In this document: in pieces, positions 109 to 17,866 of the stretch
How positions within the stretch are numbered: the stretch's first letter is position 1
Layout: each line of letters opens with the position of its first letter
NCBI GenBank assembly: GCA_048939465.1
Contig: JBHLPL010000034.1
Coordinates: 1 to 17,866, forward strand
Origin: Promethearchaeota archaeon
Lineage (GTDB): Archaea; Asgardarchaeota; Odinarchaeia; Odinarchaeales; JBHLKK01
DNA length: 17,866 nt
Direction of reading: 5' to 3'
Position numbers and translations under genes: made by a program
The notes under the pieces: model-generated
Seen by the model: the letters and a program-made list of their open reading frames with translations, nothing else
What the model was told of the DNA's origin: nothing
Databases searched by the model: none

Positions 109-1392
109 GTGGCGAGAAAAGCGATTAGGGAGTATGACGCAAAGAGATTGCTGGCACAATACCTGCCAGAATATGCAAAAGGTAAGTTCTCTTACCCGGG
201 AAAGACTGTCTCTGTTGATGGTAAAACAAACATGGAAAACCTCGTCTCCAAAAATCCTTGGTTAAGAACCGAGAAGCTAGTGGTAAAAGTAGATCAATTG
301 GTAGGAAAAAGGCTGAAGAATAACTTAGTTTTACTTAACACTAATCTCGATGAGGCAACTAGATTCATTCGAGAGAAAATGAACAGCTCAGTGACTGTAG
401 GTAATGTAGAAGGGGTCCTTACTCATTTCTTAATTGAACCGTTCGTCCTACATGAAAGGGAGTATTTTGCGGCCATAAGATCAGTACGCGAGGGAGATAT
501 AATAGACTTCTCAACCGAGGGCGGAATAGACATTGAAGAAAAATGGGAAAGCGTCGTTTCTATTAAGATTCCAACACTCGAATCTGTTGAGAATGTCGAT
601 ATTTCAGGGAAGCTTCCGTCAGAACTATCAGACGAAGAGAGGGGGTTGTTTGGCGATTTTCTGAAAGCACTTTACAGGCTTTACAGCGATCTTGGTTTTG
701 TATATCTAGAGATAAATCCCCTTGTCGTAAGCGATAGTACAATCATTCCGCTCGATCTCAAAGCAAGACTGGACGATGCCGCAATTTTTGAAATGGGTGC
801 AAAATGGGGGGATATAGAGTTTCCGGCTCCTTTCGGAAGGGCTCAGACTATCGAGGAGAAGCATGTCAATGATCTGGATGAAACAACTGGAGCTTCACTG
901 AAACTCACAATTCTTAACCCTAAAGGACGCATATGGCTGTTGGTTGCAGGCGGGGGGGCAAGCGTTGTATATACGGATACTGTTACAGATTTTGGCTTCT
1001 CAAATGAACTGGCAAACTATGGAGAATATAGTGGAAACCCTGATGAAGAACACACATACCTCTACGCCAAAACAATCATCGATCTGATGACGAGAGAGAA
1101 AGATCCAGAAGGAAGAGACAAAATACTTCTAATTGGTGGGGGAATTGCAAACTTCACTGACGTCGCTCAGACTTTTAAGGGAATCATAAGAGCCTTGAAA
1201 GAGGCCAAAAAGAAACTGCAGGCTACGGGAGTTCAGATTTATGTTCGACGCGGTGGTCCCAACTATGAGGAAGGGCTGAGACTCATGAGGGAGCTGGGGA
1301 AAGGATTAAACGTCCCCATCCAGGTCTACGGACCTGAAACTCATATGACCAAAATAGTCTCCCTAGCACTCAAAGAACAGAATCGTGGGTGA
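109..1392 (+). CDS. aclB: ATP citrate lyase beta subunit (ATP-grasp plus citrate-binding domain)
   Basis: N-terminal MARKAIREYDAKRLL and motifs LEINP, DLKARLDDAA, VAGGGASVVY, ANYGEYSG, GGGIANFT, VRRGGPNY are typical of ACL-A/AclB. GTG start with SD. Confidence 0.93.
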   Translation: MARKAIREYDAKRLLAQYLPEYAKGKFSYPGKTVSVDGKTNMENLVSKNPWLRTEKLVVKVDQLVGKRLKNNLVLLNTNLDEATRFIREKMNSSVTVGNVEGVLTHFLIEPFVLHEREYFAAIRSVREGDIIDFSTEGGIDIEEKWESVVSIKIPTLESVENVDISGKLPSELSDEERGLFGDFLKALYRLYSDLGFVYLEINPLVVSDSTIIPLDLKARLDDAAIFEMGAKWGDIEFPAPFGRAQTIEEKHVNDLDETTGASLKLTILNPKGRIWLLVAGGGASVVYTDTVTDFGFSNELANYGEYSGNPDEEHTYLYAKTIIDLMTREKDPEGRDKILLIGGGIANFTDVAQTFKGIIRALKEAKKKLQATGVQIYVRRGGPNYEEGLRLMRELGKGLNVPIQVYGPETHMTKIVSLALKEQNRG

Positions 1393-1398
1393 AGGGCA

Positions 1399-3255
1399 AT
1401 GAAGAAGACAGACTACACTCTGTTTGATAAGAAAACCCAAGCATTTATCTACAGCCTCCAAGCTAATGCAATTCAACGCATGCTGGATTTTGACTATATC
1501 TGCAAAAGAGAGACGCCCAGTGTTGCTGCAGTTGTCGATCCTTTCAGACCGGGGCTGCAGAAGGTATTTTGGGGAAGCAAAGAGATCCTGATACCAGTCT
1601 ATGCTACCATAAAAGAGGCCGTAAGGAACCATCCAGACGTTGATGTAATGATCAATTTTGCGTCTTTTAGGTCAGCATATCCTACAACCTATGAGGCACT
1701 AAACGAGAATACTATCAGAGTCATTGTAATCATTGCCGAGGGCATTCCTGAGGCAAAAACAAAGAAGCTGATCGCCATAGCAAAGAAGAACAATAAGATC
1801 ATTATCGGACCATCAACAGTTGGAGGGTTGGTTGCCGGAGGATTCAGGATCGGCAACACCGCAGGAGCTATTGGAAATATCGTTGCTGCTAAATTATATA
1901 GGCCGGGTTCAGTAGGCGTTGTTTCAAAGTCGGGTGGGCTTCTAAACGAGATTTTCAACATGGTTGCATTAAACTCAAATGGGGTTTTTGAAGGAGTGGC
2001 AATAGGTGGAGACAGATATCCCGGCTCCACACTCCTCGACCATATAACAAGATATGAAGCAAACCCTAAAATAAAAATGATAGTTGCTCTCGGCGAGGTC
2101 GGGGGTACAGACGAATACCAAATAGTGGAGGCGCTGAAGCATGGAAAGATTACCAAACAACTTGTCATGTGGGTAATCGGGACGGCCGCAACAGTTTTTC
2201 CAACTGGAGTTCAATTTGGACATGCGGGTGCAATGGCTGAAAGCAGTCTAGAAAATGCTGACGTAAAAAACCGGGCTTTAAGAGAAGCAGGCGCAATCGT
2301 TCCAGATTCATTTGACGACTTCGGAGAGAAAATCCATCAGGTGTACGAAGGGCTGAAGGCAAAAGGTGAGATTCCTGAAATAGAAGAATTTGATGTTCCT
2401 CAGATTCCGATGCCTTATCAAGTAGCCTTATCGAAAGGCATCATAAGAAAACCTGCGAACTTCGTTACCACAATATCGGATGATCGAGGAGAAGAACCCA
2501 CGTACGCAGGAATACCGATAAGCGAGATCATTGAAGAGGACTATTCCATCGGAGATATAATAGGCTTGCTTTGGTTTAGAAAGAAGTTGCCGAAGTTTGC
2601 AACAGGATTCATCGAGATGGTACTGAAAATTGTTGCAGATCATGGACCAGCTGTATCAGGGGCACATAACGCCATTGTTGCTGCTAGAGCCGGCAAAGAC
2701 CTTATCTCTGCACTCTGCAGCGGTCTATTAACAATCGGTCCGCGATTTGGCGGAGCGATCGATGGCGCTGCACGTTATTTCAGTCAAGCGAAGGATTCGG
2801 GTATGAAACCTGCAGACTTCGTAGATGATATGAAGGCTAAAGGAATTTACATTCCAGGAATCGGTCACAGGATAAAAAGCGTGGAGAATCCTGACAGGCG
2901 TGTGGAATTGCTTAAAGATTTTGCGCGCAGAAATTTCCCGAAAACTGACTATCTAGATTATGCTCTTGAAGTCGAGAAGATAACGACCCAAAAAAGAAAC
3001 ACATTAATCCTAAATGTTGACGGGTGCGTGGGCATTCTATTCTTGGATATGCTAAAGGGGACGACTATGTTCACAGATGATGAGATAAGAGAAATGATTG
3101 AGATTGGATACCTCAACACCATGTTTGTGTTAGGAAGAAGCATTGGGATTATTGGGCATATTCTCGATCAAAAACGTCTCAAGGCTGGCTTGTACAGACA
3201 TCCGTGGGATGACATACTCTATTATGTGGAGAGAGGAGAGACTGGTGAGAAGTAA
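1399..3255 (+). CDS. aclA: ATP citrate lyase alpha subunit (CoA-binding/ligase domain with phospho-His, plus C-terminal citryl-CoA lyase module)
   Basis: NFASFRSA, IIGPSTVGG, GDRYPGS, phospho-His motif QFGHAGA, DHGPAVSGAHN, IGPRFGGA, PGIGHRIKS, LNVDG, LYRHPWDDI. Starts 6 nt after aclB. Confidence 0.93.
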   Translation: MKKTDYTLFDKKTQAFIYSLQANAIQRMLDFDYICKRETPSVAAVVDPFRPGLQKVFWGSKEILIPVYATIKEAVRNHPDVDVMINFASFRSAYPTTYEALNENTIRVIVIIAEGIPEAKTKKLIAIAKKNNKIIIGPSTVGGLVAGGFRIGNTAGAIGNIVAAKLYRPGSVGVVSKSGGLLNEIFNMVALNSNGVFEGVAIGGDRYPGSTLLDHITRYEANPKIKMIVALGEVGGTDEYQIVEALKHGKITKQLVMWVIGTAATVFPTGVQFGHAGAMAESSLENADVKNRALREAGAIVPDSFDDFGEKIHQVYEGLKAKGEIPEIEEFDVPQIPMPYQVALSKGIIRKPANFVTTISDDRGEEPTYAGIPISEIIEEDYSIGDIIGLLWFRKKLPKFATGFIEMVLKIVADHGPAVSGAHNAIVAARAGKDLISALCSGLLTIGPRFGGAIDGAARYFSQAKDSGMKPADFVDDMKAKGIYIPGIGHRIKSVENPDRRVELLKDFARRNFPKTDYLDYALEVEKITTQKRNTLILNVDGCVGILFLDMLKGTTMFTDDEIREMIEIGYLNTMFVLGRSIGIIGHILDQKRLKAGLYRHPWDDILYYVERGETGEK

Positions 3256-3549
3256 ACTACTCCTCCCTTGCAGAAGGAGCTTATGACTATGCTTGACCGC
3301 AATTCCCTTGGGGGCTTTGGCTTCATCACACGTCAAATCAGGGGGCAGTTTACAGCGCCCCAGCCAAGTAATCCGCATTTAGCGTCGGGCTATATGATTT
3401 GTCCCATCCATCCCCCACAGGTCATTAACCGTTTCCACATCGGAGAGAGGTGTGCCTTTAGACCTACTGGAATACTCATCCCAGAAGTATTTAAGGACCG
3501 CTCGATCCCTCTCCGTCCTTTCGGACGGAGTCTCCTTGAGGTGGTTTAG
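3252..3549 (-). mobile_element. Non-autonomous IS200/IS605-like element (PATE/MITE type), no transposase or tnpB ORF
   Basis: Two related 20-nt hairpins in the same orientation on the minus strand: CTCCGTCC-GAAA-GGACGGAG (3530-3511) and CTCCTTCT-GCAA-GGGAGGAG (3279-3260), 15/20 identical. The right end reads AAGCTCC...GGAG-TAGT-TTAC, like tnpB-element right ends. The left hairpin starts 19 nt after TCAT. Deleting 3252-3549 gives GAG AAA TGA overlapping the icd ATG. Confidence 0.68.
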
Positions 3550-4788
3550 ATGAATAAGAAATTGCAGCACCTAGAATCTCCGACTGAGGGAGAATGTATC
3601 AGAGTCATTGATAGCAAACTGCAGGTACCGGCCAATCCCATCATTTCGTTTATTGAGGGAGATGGCGTAGGTCCGGATATCACCAAGGCTATGCTGCCGG
3701 TCGTGAATGCTGCGGTCGAAAAAGCATATTACGGACGCAGAGAAATATCTTGGTACGAGATATTTGCAGGCCAGAAAGCCAAAGCCCTGTACGGGGAGTA
3801 TCTTCCTGAAGAAACTCTCGATGCAATTCGGAAATATGTTATAGCAATAAAGGGACCCCTAACAACGCCAGTCGGAGGAGGATATAGGAGCCTTAACGTA
3901 ACTATCAGACAGAAACTCGATTTATACGCGTGTGTGAGACCAGTAAGAGGCATAAGGGGAGTACCTGCACCAATTAAGAGACCAGAGCTAGTAGACATGG
4001 TAGTTTTTCGGGAAAATATTGAAGATGTCTACGCAGGTATTGAATGGGCATCAAATACACCTGAAAGTCGCAAGTTTATCGACTTCCTTAGGAATGAGAT
4101 GGGGGTGTCAATTCCCTTAGATTCAGGAATTGGAGTCAAGCCAATCAGTAAGACCAGAACCTACAATATTGTACGGAAATCAATCAATTATGCAATCGAA
4201 AATAACAGGAAAAGCGTTACGATAATGCACAAAGGCAATATTATGAAGTTCACCGAGGGAGCCTTTAGAGAGTGGGGATACGAAGTTGCAAATAACGAGT
4301 TTGGAGATTATATAGTAACAGAGGAGCAACTGAGGAGCGGTGAATTGCCTGAGGGCAAAGTTGTTATTAAAGATAGGATTGCAGATGCGATGTTTCAGCA
4401 GGTACTACTCAGGCCTAAAGAATACGATGTCATAGTTACGTCAAATCTAAACGGTGATTATATATCGGACGCGTTGGCTGCCCAAGTCGGTGGATTGGGA
4501 ATGGCACCTGGAGGAAACATCGGCGACTACCTTGCTGTTTTTGAGGCTACACATGGGACTGCACCAAAATACGCAGGACTAGACAAAGTGAATCCAGGAT
4601 CACTGATTCTCTCGGCAGTTATGATGCTCCGTTATATCGGATGGAATGAGGCAGGGGATCTAATCGAGAAAGCTCTTGAGAAAACCATACTGCAAAAGAG
4701 GGTAACCTACGATCTTGAACGGCAAATGGAGAATGCAACGCTTCTGAAGACATCAGAATTCGCCAAAGCTGTCGTTGAAAATCTATAA
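3550..4788 (+). CDS. icd: Isocitrate dehydrogenase, NADP-dependent, dimeric prokaryotic type
   Basis: [70 protein letters not shown] and VTYDLER carry the Lys/Tyr/Tyr/Arg residues associated with NADP specificity. SD GAGGTG at 3538-3543. Confidence 0.95.
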
Positions 4789-10525: not shown

Positions 10526-10711
10526 TGGTCCCGCCGACCGGATTTGAACCGGTGACCCTTACTGAAGCATCACCAATTTCAGTAATACTTTCTCGGTGTC
10601 TGCTGTCTGAGCACAGGTTGAGATACACAAGACAGGACGTCAAGCGCTACAGCCGAGTGCTCTGCGACTAAGCTTTCGCCGCCGTAAGCTTCTGCTTATG
10701 GCTACGGCGGG
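10526..10711 (-). tRNA. tRNA-Tyr(GTA) with three introns: 8/9 (10703-10675, 29 nt), 37/38 (10646-10598, 49 nt), about 43/44 (10591-10559, 33 nt)
   Basis: Acceptor stem CCCGCCG/CGGCGGG with C1:G72 and A73 (archaeal Tyr identity); encoded CCA; T arm ACCGG-TTCAAAT-CCGGT; anticodon stem CTCGG/CCGAG with loop CTGTAGA after intron removal. Spliced length 75 nt. BHB-type motifs at all three inserts. Confidence 0.88.
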
Positions 10712-10744
10712 TTGGCGGAACCATAGTTAATTGGTCAAGATTTT

Positions 10745-10756
10745 TTATTTAAACTT
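10745..10756 (-). promoter_or_regulatory. TATA box for tRNA-Tyr
   Basis: Minus strand AAGTTTAAATAA; the TATA box ends about 35 nt upstream of C1. Confidence 0.7.
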
Positions 10757-10829: not shown

Positions 10830-10933
10830 GCCCGGGTGGTGTAGTCCGGTCTATCATCTGGGACTGTCAACATCATAAGTCCAGACAAGGCAGAGCTCCC
10901 AGGACTCGGGTTCAAATCCCGGCCCGGGCGCCA
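10830..10933 (+). tRNA. tRNA-Asp(GTC) with canonical 37/38 intron (10870-10895, 26 nt)
   Basis: GCCCGGG/CCCGGGC acceptor stem, G73, encoded CCA; anticodon stem TGGGA/TCCCA with loop CTGTCAC after splicing; BHB central helix CTGT/GCAG with bulges CA|A and AG|C. Confidence 0.93.
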
Positions 10934-11152: not shown

Positions 11153-14100
11153 ATGGCTAGGGCAATTGATAGATGGGAATTGATGACAACTTTCTTTGAA
11201 GAAAAAGGATTAGTAAGACAGCATCTTGATTCGTATAACTCCTTCATTAAAGAAGGACTCCAGCAGATTGTAGAAGAAGTTGGTAGAATTGAGCCAGATA
11301 TTGAAGGATTTTGTGTCGAATTTGGCAAGATTAGAGTAGAGGAGCCAAATGTTACCGAGGCCGATGGTTCAGTTAAGAAAGTAAGCCCAAGTGAGGCGCG
11401 TATCCGCAATCTGACATACTCGGCACCGATATACTTGGAAATGACTCCGGTACTCCAAGATTCAGAGACGGGTATTGAAGAACGTGGAGAAACAATCGAC
11501 ATCTACATCGGCAGAATACCTATTATGCTTAAATCGGAAAGATGCGGACTCGCTCACTTAAGTCCGGAGAATCTTGTAAAGGTTAACGAAGACCCGAGGG
11601 ATCCGGGCGGCTATTTCATAGTCAACGGATCAGAACGAGTACTGGTTACTCAAGAGGATCTGGCGCCCAACAGAATCTTAACTGAAGAAGCAGGAAGCAG
11701 TAGTTCCGCAACTCACGTAGCAAAGGTATTCTCGACAGCTCGCGGCTTCAGGGCTCCTGTAACACTGGAAAGAACCAAAGACAATGAATTAAGGGTTTCC
11801 TTCCCGTCGATACCGGGAAAAATCCCCTTGATAATTCTTGTGCGGGCCTTAGGACTTATCACAGACAAGGAGGTCATCGAGACTTTCTCTGAAGATTTTG
11901 AGATTCGGCGTGAGCTCATCCCTACCCTTGAGGCAGCGGCACCCATATACGTCCCTAAGGATCGAGAGGAAACAAGGAGAAATGCCCTAGACTATATCGG
12001 CAGAAGGGTTGCCATCGGTCAAACCATCGAATATCGGTTAAGACGCGCAGAACAGGTTTTAGATCGCTATCTTCTTCCCCACATAGGTATGAGGCAAGAA
12101 GATCGAATTAGGAAGGCATATTATCTTACGCAAATGGCTCAAAGGCTTATTGAACTAATTTTGGGAAAAAGAGCCAAGGACGATAAAGATCATTATTCAA
12201 ATAAAAGACTGAAGCTCGCAGGTGAGCTTCTAACAAGTCTGTTTCGGGTTGCATTTTTGAATCTTGTTAGAGACGTCAAATATCAGCTTGAACGAACTGC
12301 TGTTAGAGGTCGCAAGCCCAACATTCGTACGGCTGTACGAGCGGATGTGATAACAGAACGACTTAAACATGCATTAGCTACAGGGAACTGGGTCGGTGGA
12401 AAAGCAGGCGTAAGTCAGCTACTTGACAGAACAAACTATATATCAACGTTGAGCCATCTGAGAAGAATTGTTTCTCCTCTTAGCAGAAGTCAGCCTCATT
12501 TCGAGGCACGTGACCTTCATCCCACGCACTGGGGCCGGATATGTGTTGCTCCTTCAACCTTGGTAACGATGGCAGATAAGGTGACTCAAACTCCAATATC
12601 TGATTTAGAACAGAACTACTCGGAAAAGACGGTTGCAACGGTGAATCTGGCAGACTTCCGGATAGTTCCGTCAACACTACACGATTATCAGAAATTCTCA
12701 CCAATTAAGCTAAATAAGAGAGTTTACAGGATAACAACAATTAGCGGAAGAACCATTGAGGCAACAGCAGATCATCCATTCTTCACACTTAGAGGATGGG
12801 TTTCTGGAAAAGATCTTAATGTTAATGATAAAGTCTTGGTATTCCCAGGCATCGAGCCGATCGAGATTGAACCCATATTGGAGTCTCAGGGTGAAATCCT
12901 ATCGGAAAAGGAATTCCTTGAAGGTGAGTGGATAACCAAGCTAACAAGCTCGGAGAGAAAGCGATTAGCAGGATACGCTGAAGAATTAAAAGAAAAGGGG
13001 CTTCTGCCGCTCAAAAATACCAACCCCAAGTTGCCCATTGTCGCAAGATTGTTCGGATATATCATTACAGACGGCTCTGTTGGCAAGACAGTCGAGTTCT
13101 ACTGTGGCTGTAGAGAGGATGTTAAAGACATCCAAACAGATCTCCTAGAGCTGGGCTTCAAACCCACAAGCATTAGCACAAAAATCGGGACCTTTCCGGT
13201 TGATGGAGAAGAATTGACTTATACTACAGAAAGAACCACAAAGGGAGGTTCTTTCCTATCCCTCATGCTGGCCTTGGGCTGTCCGAGAGGGAAAAGAGTG
13301 TCACAGCCGTCGGTTTTTCCAAAATGGGTTCCTAATTCAAGCCTTCTAGTTCAGCGAGAGTTCCTTGCGGGCTATCTTGGCGGTGATGGTTCAGCACCTC
13401 GATTCTACAGAAGATCTGAAGAGGATAGAAAAGATAGCTATAAGATCAAGCTGGATAGAATCGCAGGTCACAAGGAGAAAGAGTTCGCATCAACCTTGAG
13501 AGAATTCTTTGAAAAGATGCGGAATTCGTTTAGAAATTTCAACATTAAAACACTTGGGATCGGATCTAAATCCTTAGACGACGAGAAGATTCAGGTTGGT
13601 CTTCAGTTTTCCCAAGAGCATTCTAACATTGTGAAAATCGCTAAGTTGATCGGATTCAGGTACTGTAAAGAAAAGCAAAGCAAAGCGGCGTTGGTTCAAG
13701 AGTATTTGAACTACAAAGAATGGGAGATTTCAATTAGGTCGAAATATGTCCAAGAAGCAATCACGCTATTCAAGAATGGGGTGACAAAACGAGAGATTGC
13801 TAAGCATCTCTCACTAAAGTTCAACAGAAACATCACCCACAGAGCTATTGATGGACTTTTGCTGCGAATTGATGAGCGTAAGAAGCTTGTAATGCCTAAA
13901 TCTTCCATGAATATCAACGACTTCCTCCTAGAAACTTGTGCAGACTTCGATAATGGATTCTTATATTTGCCTATCGATAGAATCGAGGAATCGCGCCTGG
14001 AAGATGTAAGGGATTTCACCACCGTTTCAAAGAATCATAACTTCATTGCAAACGGATTCTTAACACACAATTGTCCCAATGAGACCCCTGAGGGGCCCAA

Positions 14101-17100
14101 CTGTGTTGTGCCCAACACCAGGGTTACCATCTCCGGAGGTAGTACGTATCAAATCGGAGACTTAGAAAAGGATGGAAAGTGGCGGCGCATTAGGTTGATG
14201 TCTTCAACTTGGAATGTGCCAAATAATCATCAAACAGACGCTATCTATCCAACAGTGGCGAGATTCATAAAAAACAAGGCTAACGGACGCCCATTTAAGC
14301 TCTATAACATCAAGACAGATACTGGTCGCACAATATCAGCGACAGCAGACCACCCATTCTATACCGACCAGGGTCGACTGGAAGCTAAGAGACTTACACA
14401 TGGAACGAAAGCTGCCGTATTGCCTGCAGCGCTTCAGCGACCTGACTGGGGGTCGGAGGTCGGTGGTAATGATATTATCATAAGCGAAAAAGGAATTATT
14501 GAGGCTTGCCCACCGCACTCCAAAGTCCAGCTTCACTGTAACTTCCTGAAGAAGCTGGGATTGATCCCCCTCAGGAGAAGCGATCCACGTTATAGAATTC
14601 TGCTTCGTCTTTTGGCCTTCCTTTATGGTGATGGGCACTTATCTTTTAGGATCCGTGAGGGCAGGTCTGGTAAGCCCAAATCGGATGTTTCAGTTCATTT
14701 TGTCGGTCAAGTAGAAGACCTGAAAGATATTCAGACTGATATTGCCATGCTTGGCTTCCGAAGTTCCAAGATATACACTTCAAAGGCCGAATCTGTCCTT
14801 CCAGACAGAATAATTAAAGGCAAGACTTCCAAGATTGTATGTTACCAAAAACCCTTCTGGGTCCTTATGAAGGGGCTTGGTGCTCCTGTTGGAGATAAGC
14901 AAAAGCAAGATTTCTCCGTCCCCGAATGGCTTTTTAATGCATCCGGAGCGGAGATTAGAGAGTTTTTGGCTGCGTTTTTTGGATGTGAAATGCTTAAGCC
15001 GCTAGTTGACAAGAGAACAGGAAAGGTCTTTGTCCCTCCTTCCATCAAGATGTCAAAGGAAATCTCCATGATTGAGTCACTCCGAGAATTCTTTATGGAC
15101 ATAAAGAGACTGGCCGAACGTTTTGATATCCAGTTTCCTGAAAAAGTTATCACTCCTAAAGAAAAATTCGTACGTAAGGATGGGACAGTTACGCAAAAAC
15201 TTCAATTGAACTTCTCGGGCTCAGTTGAAAACCTAGCCAAGCTATGGGGAAAGATTGGCTATACCTATAACAGAGAACGGGAATGTCTCGCTCAACGTGC
15301 TTATGGCTATCTACATAGGCATTTGATGGCTCGTTCTAAACGACAAGAAGCTGCAAGGTATGTTATGGGAAGAAGACGGGTGCTAGATGGAACTCCAACT
15401 GAAAAAGCGAGAATCATTATGAAGGAACTTAAAGATCTAGGACTACTTCAATTTGTTCGTCTTCACGATATCGTCAACTGGATAAAGACTCGTATAGAGC
15501 CCTCCTCAGCTCGTGTATCAGAGATAGATTCTCCATCATTTGATGAATGGGTAGCTCAAGCTGCGATGAATCTAGAAGGTGATGCTGGTCTAATCTGGGA
15601 GACTGTAGAAACTGTTAATATTAAGATTACCGAACCCTCTCAGATTGTTGAAGATGTGACCATGGCGGACAGAAATCATAACTTCTTTGTCAACGGTTTT
15701 CTAACCGGAAACTGTGGTCTCGTCAAGAATCTTGCCCTGATGGCCTACATCTCCGTCGGGACGGATGAGGGGGTTGTCGAAAATGTCCTGTTAAATCTCG
15801 GGGTTTATCCTGCAGAGGAGGTTATTAAAGACAAAACGAAGAGAGGAGCTCAAGTATTTCTGAACGGGAGGCTTGTCGGCGTTCATCCTAAGGCAAAGGA
15901 ACTCGTCACAAAATTGAGAGCGATACGTAGAAAGGGGGAAATTGACGACGAGGTCAACGCAGCATATGACGCTGAAACCAACGAAGTTCAGATCAACTGT
16001 GACTCGGGAAGAGCCAGAAGACCTCTGATAATCGTAGAGGATGGCGTGCCTAAAATCAAGCCAGAGCAAATAGAGCAGTTGAGAAATAGGGAGATAGTGT
16101 TCAGTGACCTAGTGGCAAAAGGAATCGTGGAATATCTAGATTCAGAAGAGGAAGAGAACTCGTTTATTGCGCTTGACCCCAAGGATTTGACCCCTGAGCA
16201 CACACATCTCGAAATAGCGCCTTCCGCGATACTTGGCATAACAGCATCAACGACACCCTTCCCTGAATATAACCAGTCTCCCCGTAATGTTTACCAAGCA
16301 GGAATGAGCAAGCAAGCCCTCGGAATCTATGCCACGAACTATCGACACAGAGTCGATACAAGAAGCCATCTCCTTCATTATCCTCAAAGACCGATTGTAG
16401 AGACTGAGGCAATGGACGCTGTAGGTTTTGCCAGCAGACCAGCTGGCCAGAATCTGATTGTGGCTGTCCTCAGCTTCCAAGGATACAACCTGGAAGATGC
16501 TCTAGTTATTAACAAGGCATCAATAGAACGAGGCGTTGGGAGAGGAACCTTTTTCAGATCATACGAGGCAGAAGAAAGGAAGTACCCTGGGGGTCAGGAG
16601 GATAGATTCGAAATTCCGGAAAAAAGTGTTCGTGGGTATCGTATAGCCGAAGCCTATCGCCACCTGTCTGAGGATGGTATCATTGAGCCCGAAATGGAAG
16701 TAACAGGTGGTGATGTGTTGATAGGACGATCAAGCCCTCCGAGGTTTCTTGAAGAGTATTCCGAATTTGAAGCCATCTCGCCGATAAGGCGCGAGACCTC
16801 GATAAACATGAGACATGGCGAAAGGGGTGTGGTCGATACTGTTATACTTTCTGAAACGATGGACGGGAGTAAGTTAATCAAGATTAAAGTTAGGGATCAA
16901 CGGATACCTGAACTCGGAGACAAGTTTGCGTCCAGACATGGCCAAAAAGGAGTTATTGGTTTAATAGTTCCACAGGAAGATATGCCTTTTACAGGAGAGG
17001 GGATAGTACCAGATCTCATAGTAAACCCGCACGCAATACCGTCCCGTATGACGGTTGGACAGATAATGGAGGGGTTGGCAGGAAAGGTTGGTGCCCTCAG

Positions 17101-17632
17101 AGGAGATGTAGAAGGAATTAACGGCAACGCGTTTAGCGGGGAAAAAGGAGAAGTCCTTTTTAAGATGCTCAAAGAATTGGGCTTTAAGCCCACTGGACGC
17201 GAAGTAATGTACGATGGAATGACTGGCAGAAAATACATCGTAGACGTTTTTATGGCTGTCGTATACTACCAGAAACTGCACCACATGGTTGCAGATAAGA
17301 TGCACGCCCGTGCTCGCGGTCCTGTACAGATATTGACCAGACAACCGACGGAGGGTAGAGCAAGAGAAGGTGGACTACGCTTCGGTGAAATGGAACGGGA
17401 CTGTCTAATAGGGCACGGTGCAGCATTGGTCTTGAAAGAACGGTTACTTGATGAATCGGATAAATACAATATGCTGATCTGCGAAAACTGTGGCACCATT
17501 GGTGTCTATGACAGGAATAAAGACAGATACTATTGTCCTATTTGTGGAGATAAGGGGAAGGTCTCACAGGTTTCAGTTTCTTATGCCTTCAAACTTTTGC
17601 TCCAAGAACTCATGTCTTTCGATTTCCCCTGA
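11153..17632 (+). CDS. rpoB: DNA-directed RNA polymerase subunit B (unsplit) precursor with two inteins; about 1112 aa after splicing; last few codons probably non-native
   Basis: [44 protein letters not shown]|[10 protein letters not shown]|[48 protein letters not shown], zinc site CENC...[17 protein letters not shown]. Confidence 0.97.
12542..14071 (+). mobile_element. Intein 1 in RpoB (510 aa, residues 464-973) with LAGLIDADG homing endonuclease
   Basis: Begins CVAPST; block B ATADHPF; LAGLIDADG-like [11 protein letters not shown] and [12 protein letters not shown]; ends [12 protein letters not shown], +1 residue Cys. Confidence 0.93.
14102..15712 (+). mobile_element. Intein 2 in RpoB (537 aa, residues 984-1520) with LAGLIDADG homing endonuclease
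   Basis: Begins CVVPNT; block B ATADHPF; [11 protein letters not shown] and [10 protein letters not shown]; ends [12 protein letters not shown], +1 residue Cys. Confidence 0.92.
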
Positions 17633-17866
17633 ATGGGGCCATTACTGAATCCCCCCCCTCAGGCGCTATCCCTTCTTTTTTCAAAGTTTTGACTAAAGTC
17701 AGCAAAATTATTTTTATATCCAGAAATAATGAATAATTGTCAACATACCAAACGTCATACTCAAATCGTTGTTGCCAATCAAGAGAATTTCTGCCTTTAA
17801 CTTGGGCCCAACCCGAGATTCCAGGTTTGACTTCATGTCTTCGCGCCTGCTCAGGTGAATACAAAG
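17610..17866 (-). CDS. 3' fragment of a bacterial-type sugar transferase (PglC/EpsL/WcaJ-like phosphoglycosyl transferase), running off the window edge
   Basis: [25 protein letters not shown]...[19 protein letters not shown] is the conserved C-terminus of the Bac_transf family. No true start in the window. Confidence 0.85.

Follow-up and report, generated by a model that had tools for sequence, protein, structure and literature searches.

The window analysed here – the whole 17,866-nucleotide stretch of DNA – is present as contig C66 in a 1.96-Mb genome, probably that of an Odinarchaeia-related Asgard archaeon, whose nearest relatives are two genomes of the same genus (G001 and G002) and four of the same order (G003–G006), one of them a single contig of 1,418,269 bases. 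Near-identical DNA occurs in mangrove and sediment metagenomes, and contigs of this DNA (X7 record 23 and X5 record 19) carry the tRNA-Tyr gene described below, with its leader, without differences. A pattern scan of genome and metagenome contigs with the leader and gene start returned chance bacterial matches and no new relative.

Three plus-strand ORFs at 109–4788 resemble the two ATP-citrate lyase subunits and an isocitrate dehydrogenase. Another ORF (11153–17632, plus strand, 2159 amino acids) resembles RNA polymerase subunit B, judged from sequence only, and contains two large intein-like insertions (C...HN/C and C...GN/C ends). This rpoB-like frame stops abruptly in the region ~17600–17866, where it is overlapped by a bacterial-sugar-transferase-like fragment, and the contig end may be chimeric. 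ARAGORN and Rfam, run with default settings, found no tRNA in the window, and tRNA genes were delimited by pattern parsing. A tRNA-Asp(GUC) gene (10830–10933, plus strand) has a canonical 26-nt intron (10870–10895) and no spare acceptor strand; it diverges from the tRNA-Tyr gene, with its TATA box (10794) back to back with the tRNA-Tyr box.

On the minus strand, positions 10711–10526 encode a tRNA-Tyr(GUA) in four exons separated by three introns, at 8/9, 37/38 and probably 43/44. The features of this gene, in order of transcription, are:

10746–10753, minus strand: TATA box TTTAAATA, with purine-rich BRE-like bases directly upstream; invariant in three genomes
10714–10723, minus strand: segment U-12 to C-3 of the 5' leader, a putative stand-in acceptor strand; identical in G001 and G002
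10712–10713, minus strand: two-base linker A-2, A-1; A-1 is G in both relatives
between 10712 and 10711, minus strand: predicted RNase P site, at the -1/+1 boundary
10704–10711, minus strand: exon 1, C1–U8; matches the uninterrupted gene of four sister genomes
10675–10703, minus strand: intron 1 at 8/9, 29 nt; missing from G003–G006
10647–10674, minus strand: exon 2, A9–G37, with the D arm and anticodon GUA
10598–10646, minus strand: intron 2 at the canonical 37/38 position, 49 nt; of hBH type, with 4/4 central pairs and the anticodon stem as outer helix
10592–10597, minus strand: exon 3, A38–G43
10559–10591, minus strand: intron 3, most likely at 43/44, 33 nt; relaxed BHB with 3/4 central pairs and a long inner hairpin
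10526–10558, minus strand: exon 4, G44–A76, with the T arm, 3' acceptor strand and encoded CCA

The spliced tRNA is 75 nt long, is nearly identical to the gene of the four sister genomes that lack intron 1, and has the hallmarks of an archaeal tRNA-Tyr (C1-G72, A73, anticodon GUA and a cloverleaf after splicing). No 4/4 BHB placement was found for intron 3, whose 3/4 register was read from the sequence and whose boundary may shift by one base; a fourth mini-intron was considered and rejected. The normally invariant D-loop GG, present in relatives, reads CG here (G18 to C, at 10666 on the minus strand). The C is no assembly slip, since it recurs in contigs from runs X5 and X7, and this G18C gene is the only tRNA-Tyr gene in the genome matched by pattern.

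Intron 1 is absent from the orthologues in G003–G006, and its removal restores the gene. It fits a BHB motif whose central helix joins C3–C6 (10709–10706) to an intron GGCG (10680–10677) through 4/4 Watson-Crick pairs, with bulges GU|A and AA|A9 and an inner helix of GCC/GGC (GGC at 10683–10681) plus UAAGC/GCUUA. The outer helix consists of C2-G10 alone, with a probability of about 0, which places the motif in class HBh'. Registers 9/10 to 11/12, permitted by a repeated AGC, were rejected because, as read from the sequence, they offer no central helix. A suggestion that leader bases A-2 and A-1 extend the outer helix by pairing with U13 and U12 is not supported, in that it requires a C1xC11 mismatch, has an ensemble probability of 0.00 and involves a U13 that is C in one relative. 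The intron also carries CGGCGG (10684–10679), which had been singled out as an echo of the acceptor strand; the motif is there, but it consists of the inner-helix GGC and central-strand GG and is largely a by-product of the BHB rather than separate evidence. The position of this intron creates a conflict – C3–C6 are required by both the acceptor stem and the BHB central helix.

The preliminary description had proposed that the leader pairs with the 3' end of the same tRNA, and re-reading the sequence confirmed this 10-bp pairing. The leader at 10723–10714 (TGGTTCCGCC) matches G67–A76 at 10535–10526 (GGCGGGACCA, both minus strand) in 10/10 pairs, of which one is G-U (U-8 with G72). Its UGGU pairs with A73-C74-C75-A76, and its UCCGCC, a near copy of nt 1–6, pairs with G67–G72. 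This complementarity is real and not a chance match: 14 such 10-mers occur in 3.93 million genome positions, equivalent to ~9e-5 (about 1e-4) expected per 35-nt leader, and the duplex energy of -20.0 kcal/mol was matched by 0 of 20,000 shuffles of the same leader. The copy is weaker than the native strand, as it lacks G7-C66 and has U-G in place of C1-G72, and it can form a small hairpin together with A-2 when it has been displaced. The TATA box starts 42 nt before C1, compared with 30–32 nt before nt 1 in the genus's other tRNA genes. This spacing suggests that the start site lies at or upstream of 10723, probably at A10724, and that the whole element should be transcribed.

Other readings of the repeat were considered and rejected. 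An att-site duplication was discarded because the repeat copies the 5' end 8 nt from the original and the neighbours are tRNA-Asp and an ordinary protein gene; a split tRNA because this is a single collinear gene behind one TATA box, with a leader that pairs exon 67–76; and a permuted tRNA because gene order is normal and the leader is complementary to the 3' end rather than a copy of it.

Folding the precursor with and without the leader gave the outcome anticipated in the preliminary description, with the BHB forming only when the leader was present. The minimum-free-energy structure contains the leader helix and the 8/9 BHB with the leader, and the acceptor stem but no BHB without it. Across the three genomes, the central helix has a probability of 0.56–0.95 with the leader and ≤0.02 when the leader is deleted or mutated, a contrast that persists at 60 and 70 °C. 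The models thus describe two mutually exclusive folds – leader helix plus BHB, or acceptor stem plus leader hairpin. For the complete precursor, the leader form is favoured by 6.6–10.6 kcal/mol when the CCA is included, and the balance becomes -1.4 to +2.6 kcal/mol without the ACCA pairs, so nearly all of the margin is due to pairing with the encoded CCA. A slipped, non-BHB helix between nt 2–7 and the intron CGGCGG makes up 26–35% of the ensemble in two genomes.

What happens after splicing is less favourable to the original proposal, under which removal of the first intron would lift the block. In 2D models, the leader helix retains a margin of 2.9–7.1 kcal/mol with intron 1 removed and 0.7–4.9 kcal/mol with all three introns removed. 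Splicing is thus predicted to weaken the leader's hold without reversing the preferred fold, and release would need forces outside the model.

All 3/3 genomes that have the 8/9 intron share an identical leader. None of 23 tRNA-Tyr genes lacking this intron has the leader, and their best duplex reaches -8.5 kcal/mol, compared with -20.0. Two forms of support had been anticipated from such a comparison. The first – absence of the leader where the intron is absent – was found; the second – compensatory change – was not, as the promoter-to-leader stretch is almost invariant across the three genomes and leader conservation alone consequently says little.

The combination of an awkward intron and a spare strand recurs in other Asgard tRNA genes. 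We collected 303 tRNA genes from 43 Asgard genomes by a T-loop-to-CCA pattern, with genes interrupted between these two elements escaping the census. The genes were ranked by how strongly the 35 nt upstream can pair with nt 66–76. The top 27 duplexes (-20.0 to -15.5 kcal/mol) all belong to genes with an intron at 7/8, 8/9 or 10/11. None of the other 276 genes in the census reaches -15 kcal/mol – the next values are -14.5, from a match in G036 that is rich in G-U pairs and lies 30 nt upstream, and -12.6 – and no intron at 12/13 or earlier was found among them (203 by a common nt 8–15 pattern, 73 by eye). Because a leader-blind automatic intron classifier was either too strict (calling 8 of the 27) or noisy, the remaining genes were judged by eye. 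The 27 genes form six lineage/isotype groups, namely tRNA-Tyr and tRNA-His in the study genome's family, tRNA-His in family f12, tRNA-iMet in f19, tRNA-iMet in G032 and one gene in G012, and represent about six events rather than 27 independent points. Introns at about 13/14–14/15, whose central helix does not use nt 1–7, have no spare strand as judged by eye. Together with the folding results, this co-occurrence strongly supports the earlier idea that leader capture of the 3' strand frees C3–C6 for the BHB.

Within the census the Tyr leader forms the strongest duplex and is the sole one to pair through A76, though a copy of nt 7 is omitted. Most other spares reach 73–74, and those of G012 and G032 stop at 72 or 73. 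In one genus, the tRNA-His of G136 has both intron and spare, and those of G137, G026 and G036 have no intron and no adjacent spare. Across 13 tRNA-His leaders the flanks vary, and the spare strand is invariant apart from a C-to-U substitution, which leaves a G-U pair in place. The study genome's own tRNA-His (C46, about 17955–18140) is interrupted by an intron at 8/9 and has, 15 nt upstream, a spare (GGCCGGGAU) that is conserved in G001 and G002. Elsewhere, a tRNA-Ser at G040:C1 (about 1598107–1598400, minus strand) has a normal anticodon arm, T arm and CCA, but the 300 nt upstream contain no recognisable 5' acceptor strand; it could be multiply interrupted, split or decayed.

A mirror-image arrangement is found in tRNA-iMet. 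The study-genome gene (C63, minus strand, about 4640–4360) is interrupted at 71/72 by an intron that borrows C66–C69 for its central helix, and its trailer contains a second CCCCGCU(A/G)CCA behind a small hairpin. Both the 71/72 intron and the trailer spare are present in 6/6 Odinarchaeia genomes having the gene, and none of 301 other trailers has an exact copy of its own acceptor strand. Folding gave a probability of 0.90–0.98 for spare-strand pairing and 0.01–0.09 for the exact BHB register. The spare lies on the same side as the strand borrowed by the intron, as predicted if spares serve as stand-ins. A tRNA-iMet at G017:C1 (about 463700, minus strand), with an intron near 64–66, has a 3'-acceptor repeat directly after its CCA that is possibly another trailer spare.

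The study genome has two genes with an EndA domain (PF01974), at C90:9287–9538 and C139:31376–31636; the two frames have lengths of 213 and 206 amino acids. The C139 product apparently lacks the region of the catalytic histidine, which would suit a structural beta subunit, and the pair is consistent with an alpha/beta, probably two-subunit EndA. Also encoded is an archaeal RNase P RNA that has P15/L15, the L15 loop containing a GGU. Binding of the 3' RCCA by L15 is established for bacterial-type RNase P RNAs. In Methanopyrus kandleri, tRNA ends are trimmed before introns are removed, and RNase P is needed to expose C1 of tRNA-Tyr, which in archaea must start with C (PMC3695527). An ends-first order would lock the 8/9 intron out of its BHB, providing a reason for the leader to exist. 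Bacterial RNase P is inhibited by leader–RCCA pairing (PMC9433436), and two RNase Zs from methanogens require both a mature 5' end and an acceptor stem in the precursor and cleave it behind an encoded CCA (PMC7479834).

Sequence and folding lead us to the view that the Tyr leader most likely substitutes in cis for the 5' acceptor strand and so allows splicing of an intron that invades the acceptor stem. EndA cleavage of the 8/9 intron needs C3–C6 paired with the intron, which is impossible while these bases sit in the acceptor stem. In the precursor, the leader would pair with G67–A76, leaving no acceptor stem and allowing C3–C6 to form the BHB central helix, with the extra pairs to the encoded ACCA tipping the balance toward the weaker leader copy. 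EndA, probably in its two-subunit form, would then remove intron 1. Meanwhile the bound leader, by leaving neither an acceptor stem nor a free ACCA, would bar RNase P and RNase Z from trimming the ends prematurely and thereby locking the intron in. That RNase P is blocked in the splice-competent conformer is a reasonable inference, given that this conformer lacks an acceptor stem and that the genome's RNase P RNA has an L15 loop.

Release is the least secure step. Splicing would end the intron's grip on C3–C6 and narrow the gap by about 3–7 kcal/mol; strand exchange starting from the free G7-C66 pair, the leader hairpin, tertiary folding and irreversible RNase P cleavage could then yield the cloverleaf. 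An RNase P checkpoint of this kind is plausible, with a release step that the 2D energies leave unexplained. Release by trimming the 3' end to A73 would be energetically workable, but we do not favour it because the two methanogen RNase Zs cut after an encoded CCA and need a matured 5' end (PMC7479834). As to origin, the nine bases at the 3' side of the leader resemble the start of the intron-less sister gene plus three upstream bases. The simplest account would be a short duplication of the gene's 5' end and first leader bases, later extended to match the CCA and retained because the intron thereby became removable.

Such a duplication also underlies an alternative in which the leader has no role – a neutral scar of intron gain, with the BHB forming co-transcriptionally or by breathing on the enzyme. 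This reading draws on the G136 spare, which sits where the gene starts in its sister G137, on the resemblance of the Tyr leader to the ancestral AGU-CCCGCC start of G003, G005 and G006, and on the head start of about 140 nt that the intron has over the 3' strand during transcription. We nonetheless think it unlikely. Spares remain intact, or change only in ways that keep pairing, while their flanks diverge, and a copy of the ancestral start does not supply the UGG that matches CCA in tRNA-Tyr. In tRNA-iMet the intron borrows the 3' strand and the spare is likewise 3', a situation in which folding during transcription favours the acceptor stem, and introns outside the acceptor-invading range have no spare. 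A useless leader gripping the 3' end at -20 kcal/mol should, moreover, be harmful.

The reach of the leader over A73–A76 suggests another function, that of quality control, in which the discriminator and CCA are masked from RNase P, RNase Z, exonucleases and TyrRS, and EndA could cut regardless. Coverage to 73–74 by most other spares, the L15 loop of the genome's RNase P RNA and the inhibition of bacterial RNase P by leader–RCCA pairing (PMC9433436) would all suit such masking, yet we judge it very unlikely, since the BHB is almost unpopulated without the leader, the G012 and G032 spares reach just 72 or 73, and genes with several introns elsewhere lack such a leader, which instead tracks acceptor-invading introns. 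We give almost no credence to a further alternative – that the leader copy is the true 5' exon in front of a small intron, or that EndA rather than RNase P removes the leader at a BHB-like site – even though UCCGCC can pair with 67–72 and A-2, A-1 and C1 would then form a three-base bulge cut exactly at -1/+1. The intron in question would be 8 nt long and without a BHB, the opposite strand has no matching bulge, EndA cleavage leaves a 5'-OH, and an RNase P RNA is encoded in the genome. Its product would also start with U, and archaeal tRNA-Tyr must start with C (PMC3695527).

Several known systems resemble parts of the stand-in arrangement that we prefer. Multi-intron Asgard tRNAs have been published (PMC11291895; bioRxiv 10.64898/2026.10.13.758758), and archaeal non-canonical introns in Thermoproteales and Asgard archaea share with tRNA-Tyr three protein-spliced introns, a central helix of 4 bp with a pair of 3-nt bulges, variants of the HBh' and hBH types and, probably, a two-subunit EndA. 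The text of review PMC4090602 names 3/4 as the extreme position, with others from 20/21 onward, and 8/9 is not among them. That review, PMC11291895 and bioRxiv 10.64898/2026.10.13.758758 describe no leader or trailer element that aids splicing of acceptor-invading introns; in the last of these the word 'leader' does not occur, and acceptor-stem and junction introns are pooled as 'other'.

Split and permuted tRNAs (Nanoarchaeum equitans, Caldivirga maquilingensis, Thermofilum pendens and Cyanidioschyzon merolae) similarly use flank pairing to make a splice-competent precursor and are the sole tRNAs for which PMC4090602 describes it; in these the leader pairs with the trailer and is part of the BHB that EndA removes. 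The Tyr leader, in contrast, pairs with exon 67–76, lies outside the BHB, acts in cis on a collinear gene and would need RNase P for its removal. Control of RNase P access by leader pairing is shared with leader–RCCA pairing, an anti-determinant of the enzyme (PMC9433436), and with RNase P riboswitches of synthetic origin (PMC7897497, PMC8925977). Those cases are either an acceptor-stem extension of a few pairs or engineered and ligand-controlled, whereas the Tyr leader is natural, takes the place of the 5' acceptor strand along 10 bp and has splicing as its proposed trigger. We found no published account of a leader pairing in place of an acceptor strand, though older work on archaeal introns, such as the 3/4 introns of Thermoproteales, may mention it.

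A BHB intron adjoining the acceptor stem presents a folding paradox, as the same bases are needed in two pairings. The tRNA-Tyr locus offers a solution that is small and concrete and can be tested in full with a 200-nt transcript, EndA and RNase P. In it a tRNA leader – usually deemed disposable – would gain a structural role. It also carries a warning for annotation, in that a spare strand can be mistaken for the end of the gene. Whether the reading extends further is, in our estimation, evenly balanced: Asgard pre-tRNAs with acceptor-invading introns may share a natural, repeatedly evolved strand-exchange switch, in which a leader or trailer spare enables splicing and holds RNase P and RNase Z off until the fold is restored. 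The finding bears on the order of archaeal tRNA maturation and adds a rule on intron gain in Asgard tRNA genes and on the positions at which introns can persist. If the switch is real, the order would be reversed relative to the ends-first pathway of Methanopyrus, and gain of a spare strand would be a precondition for intron survival at such positions.
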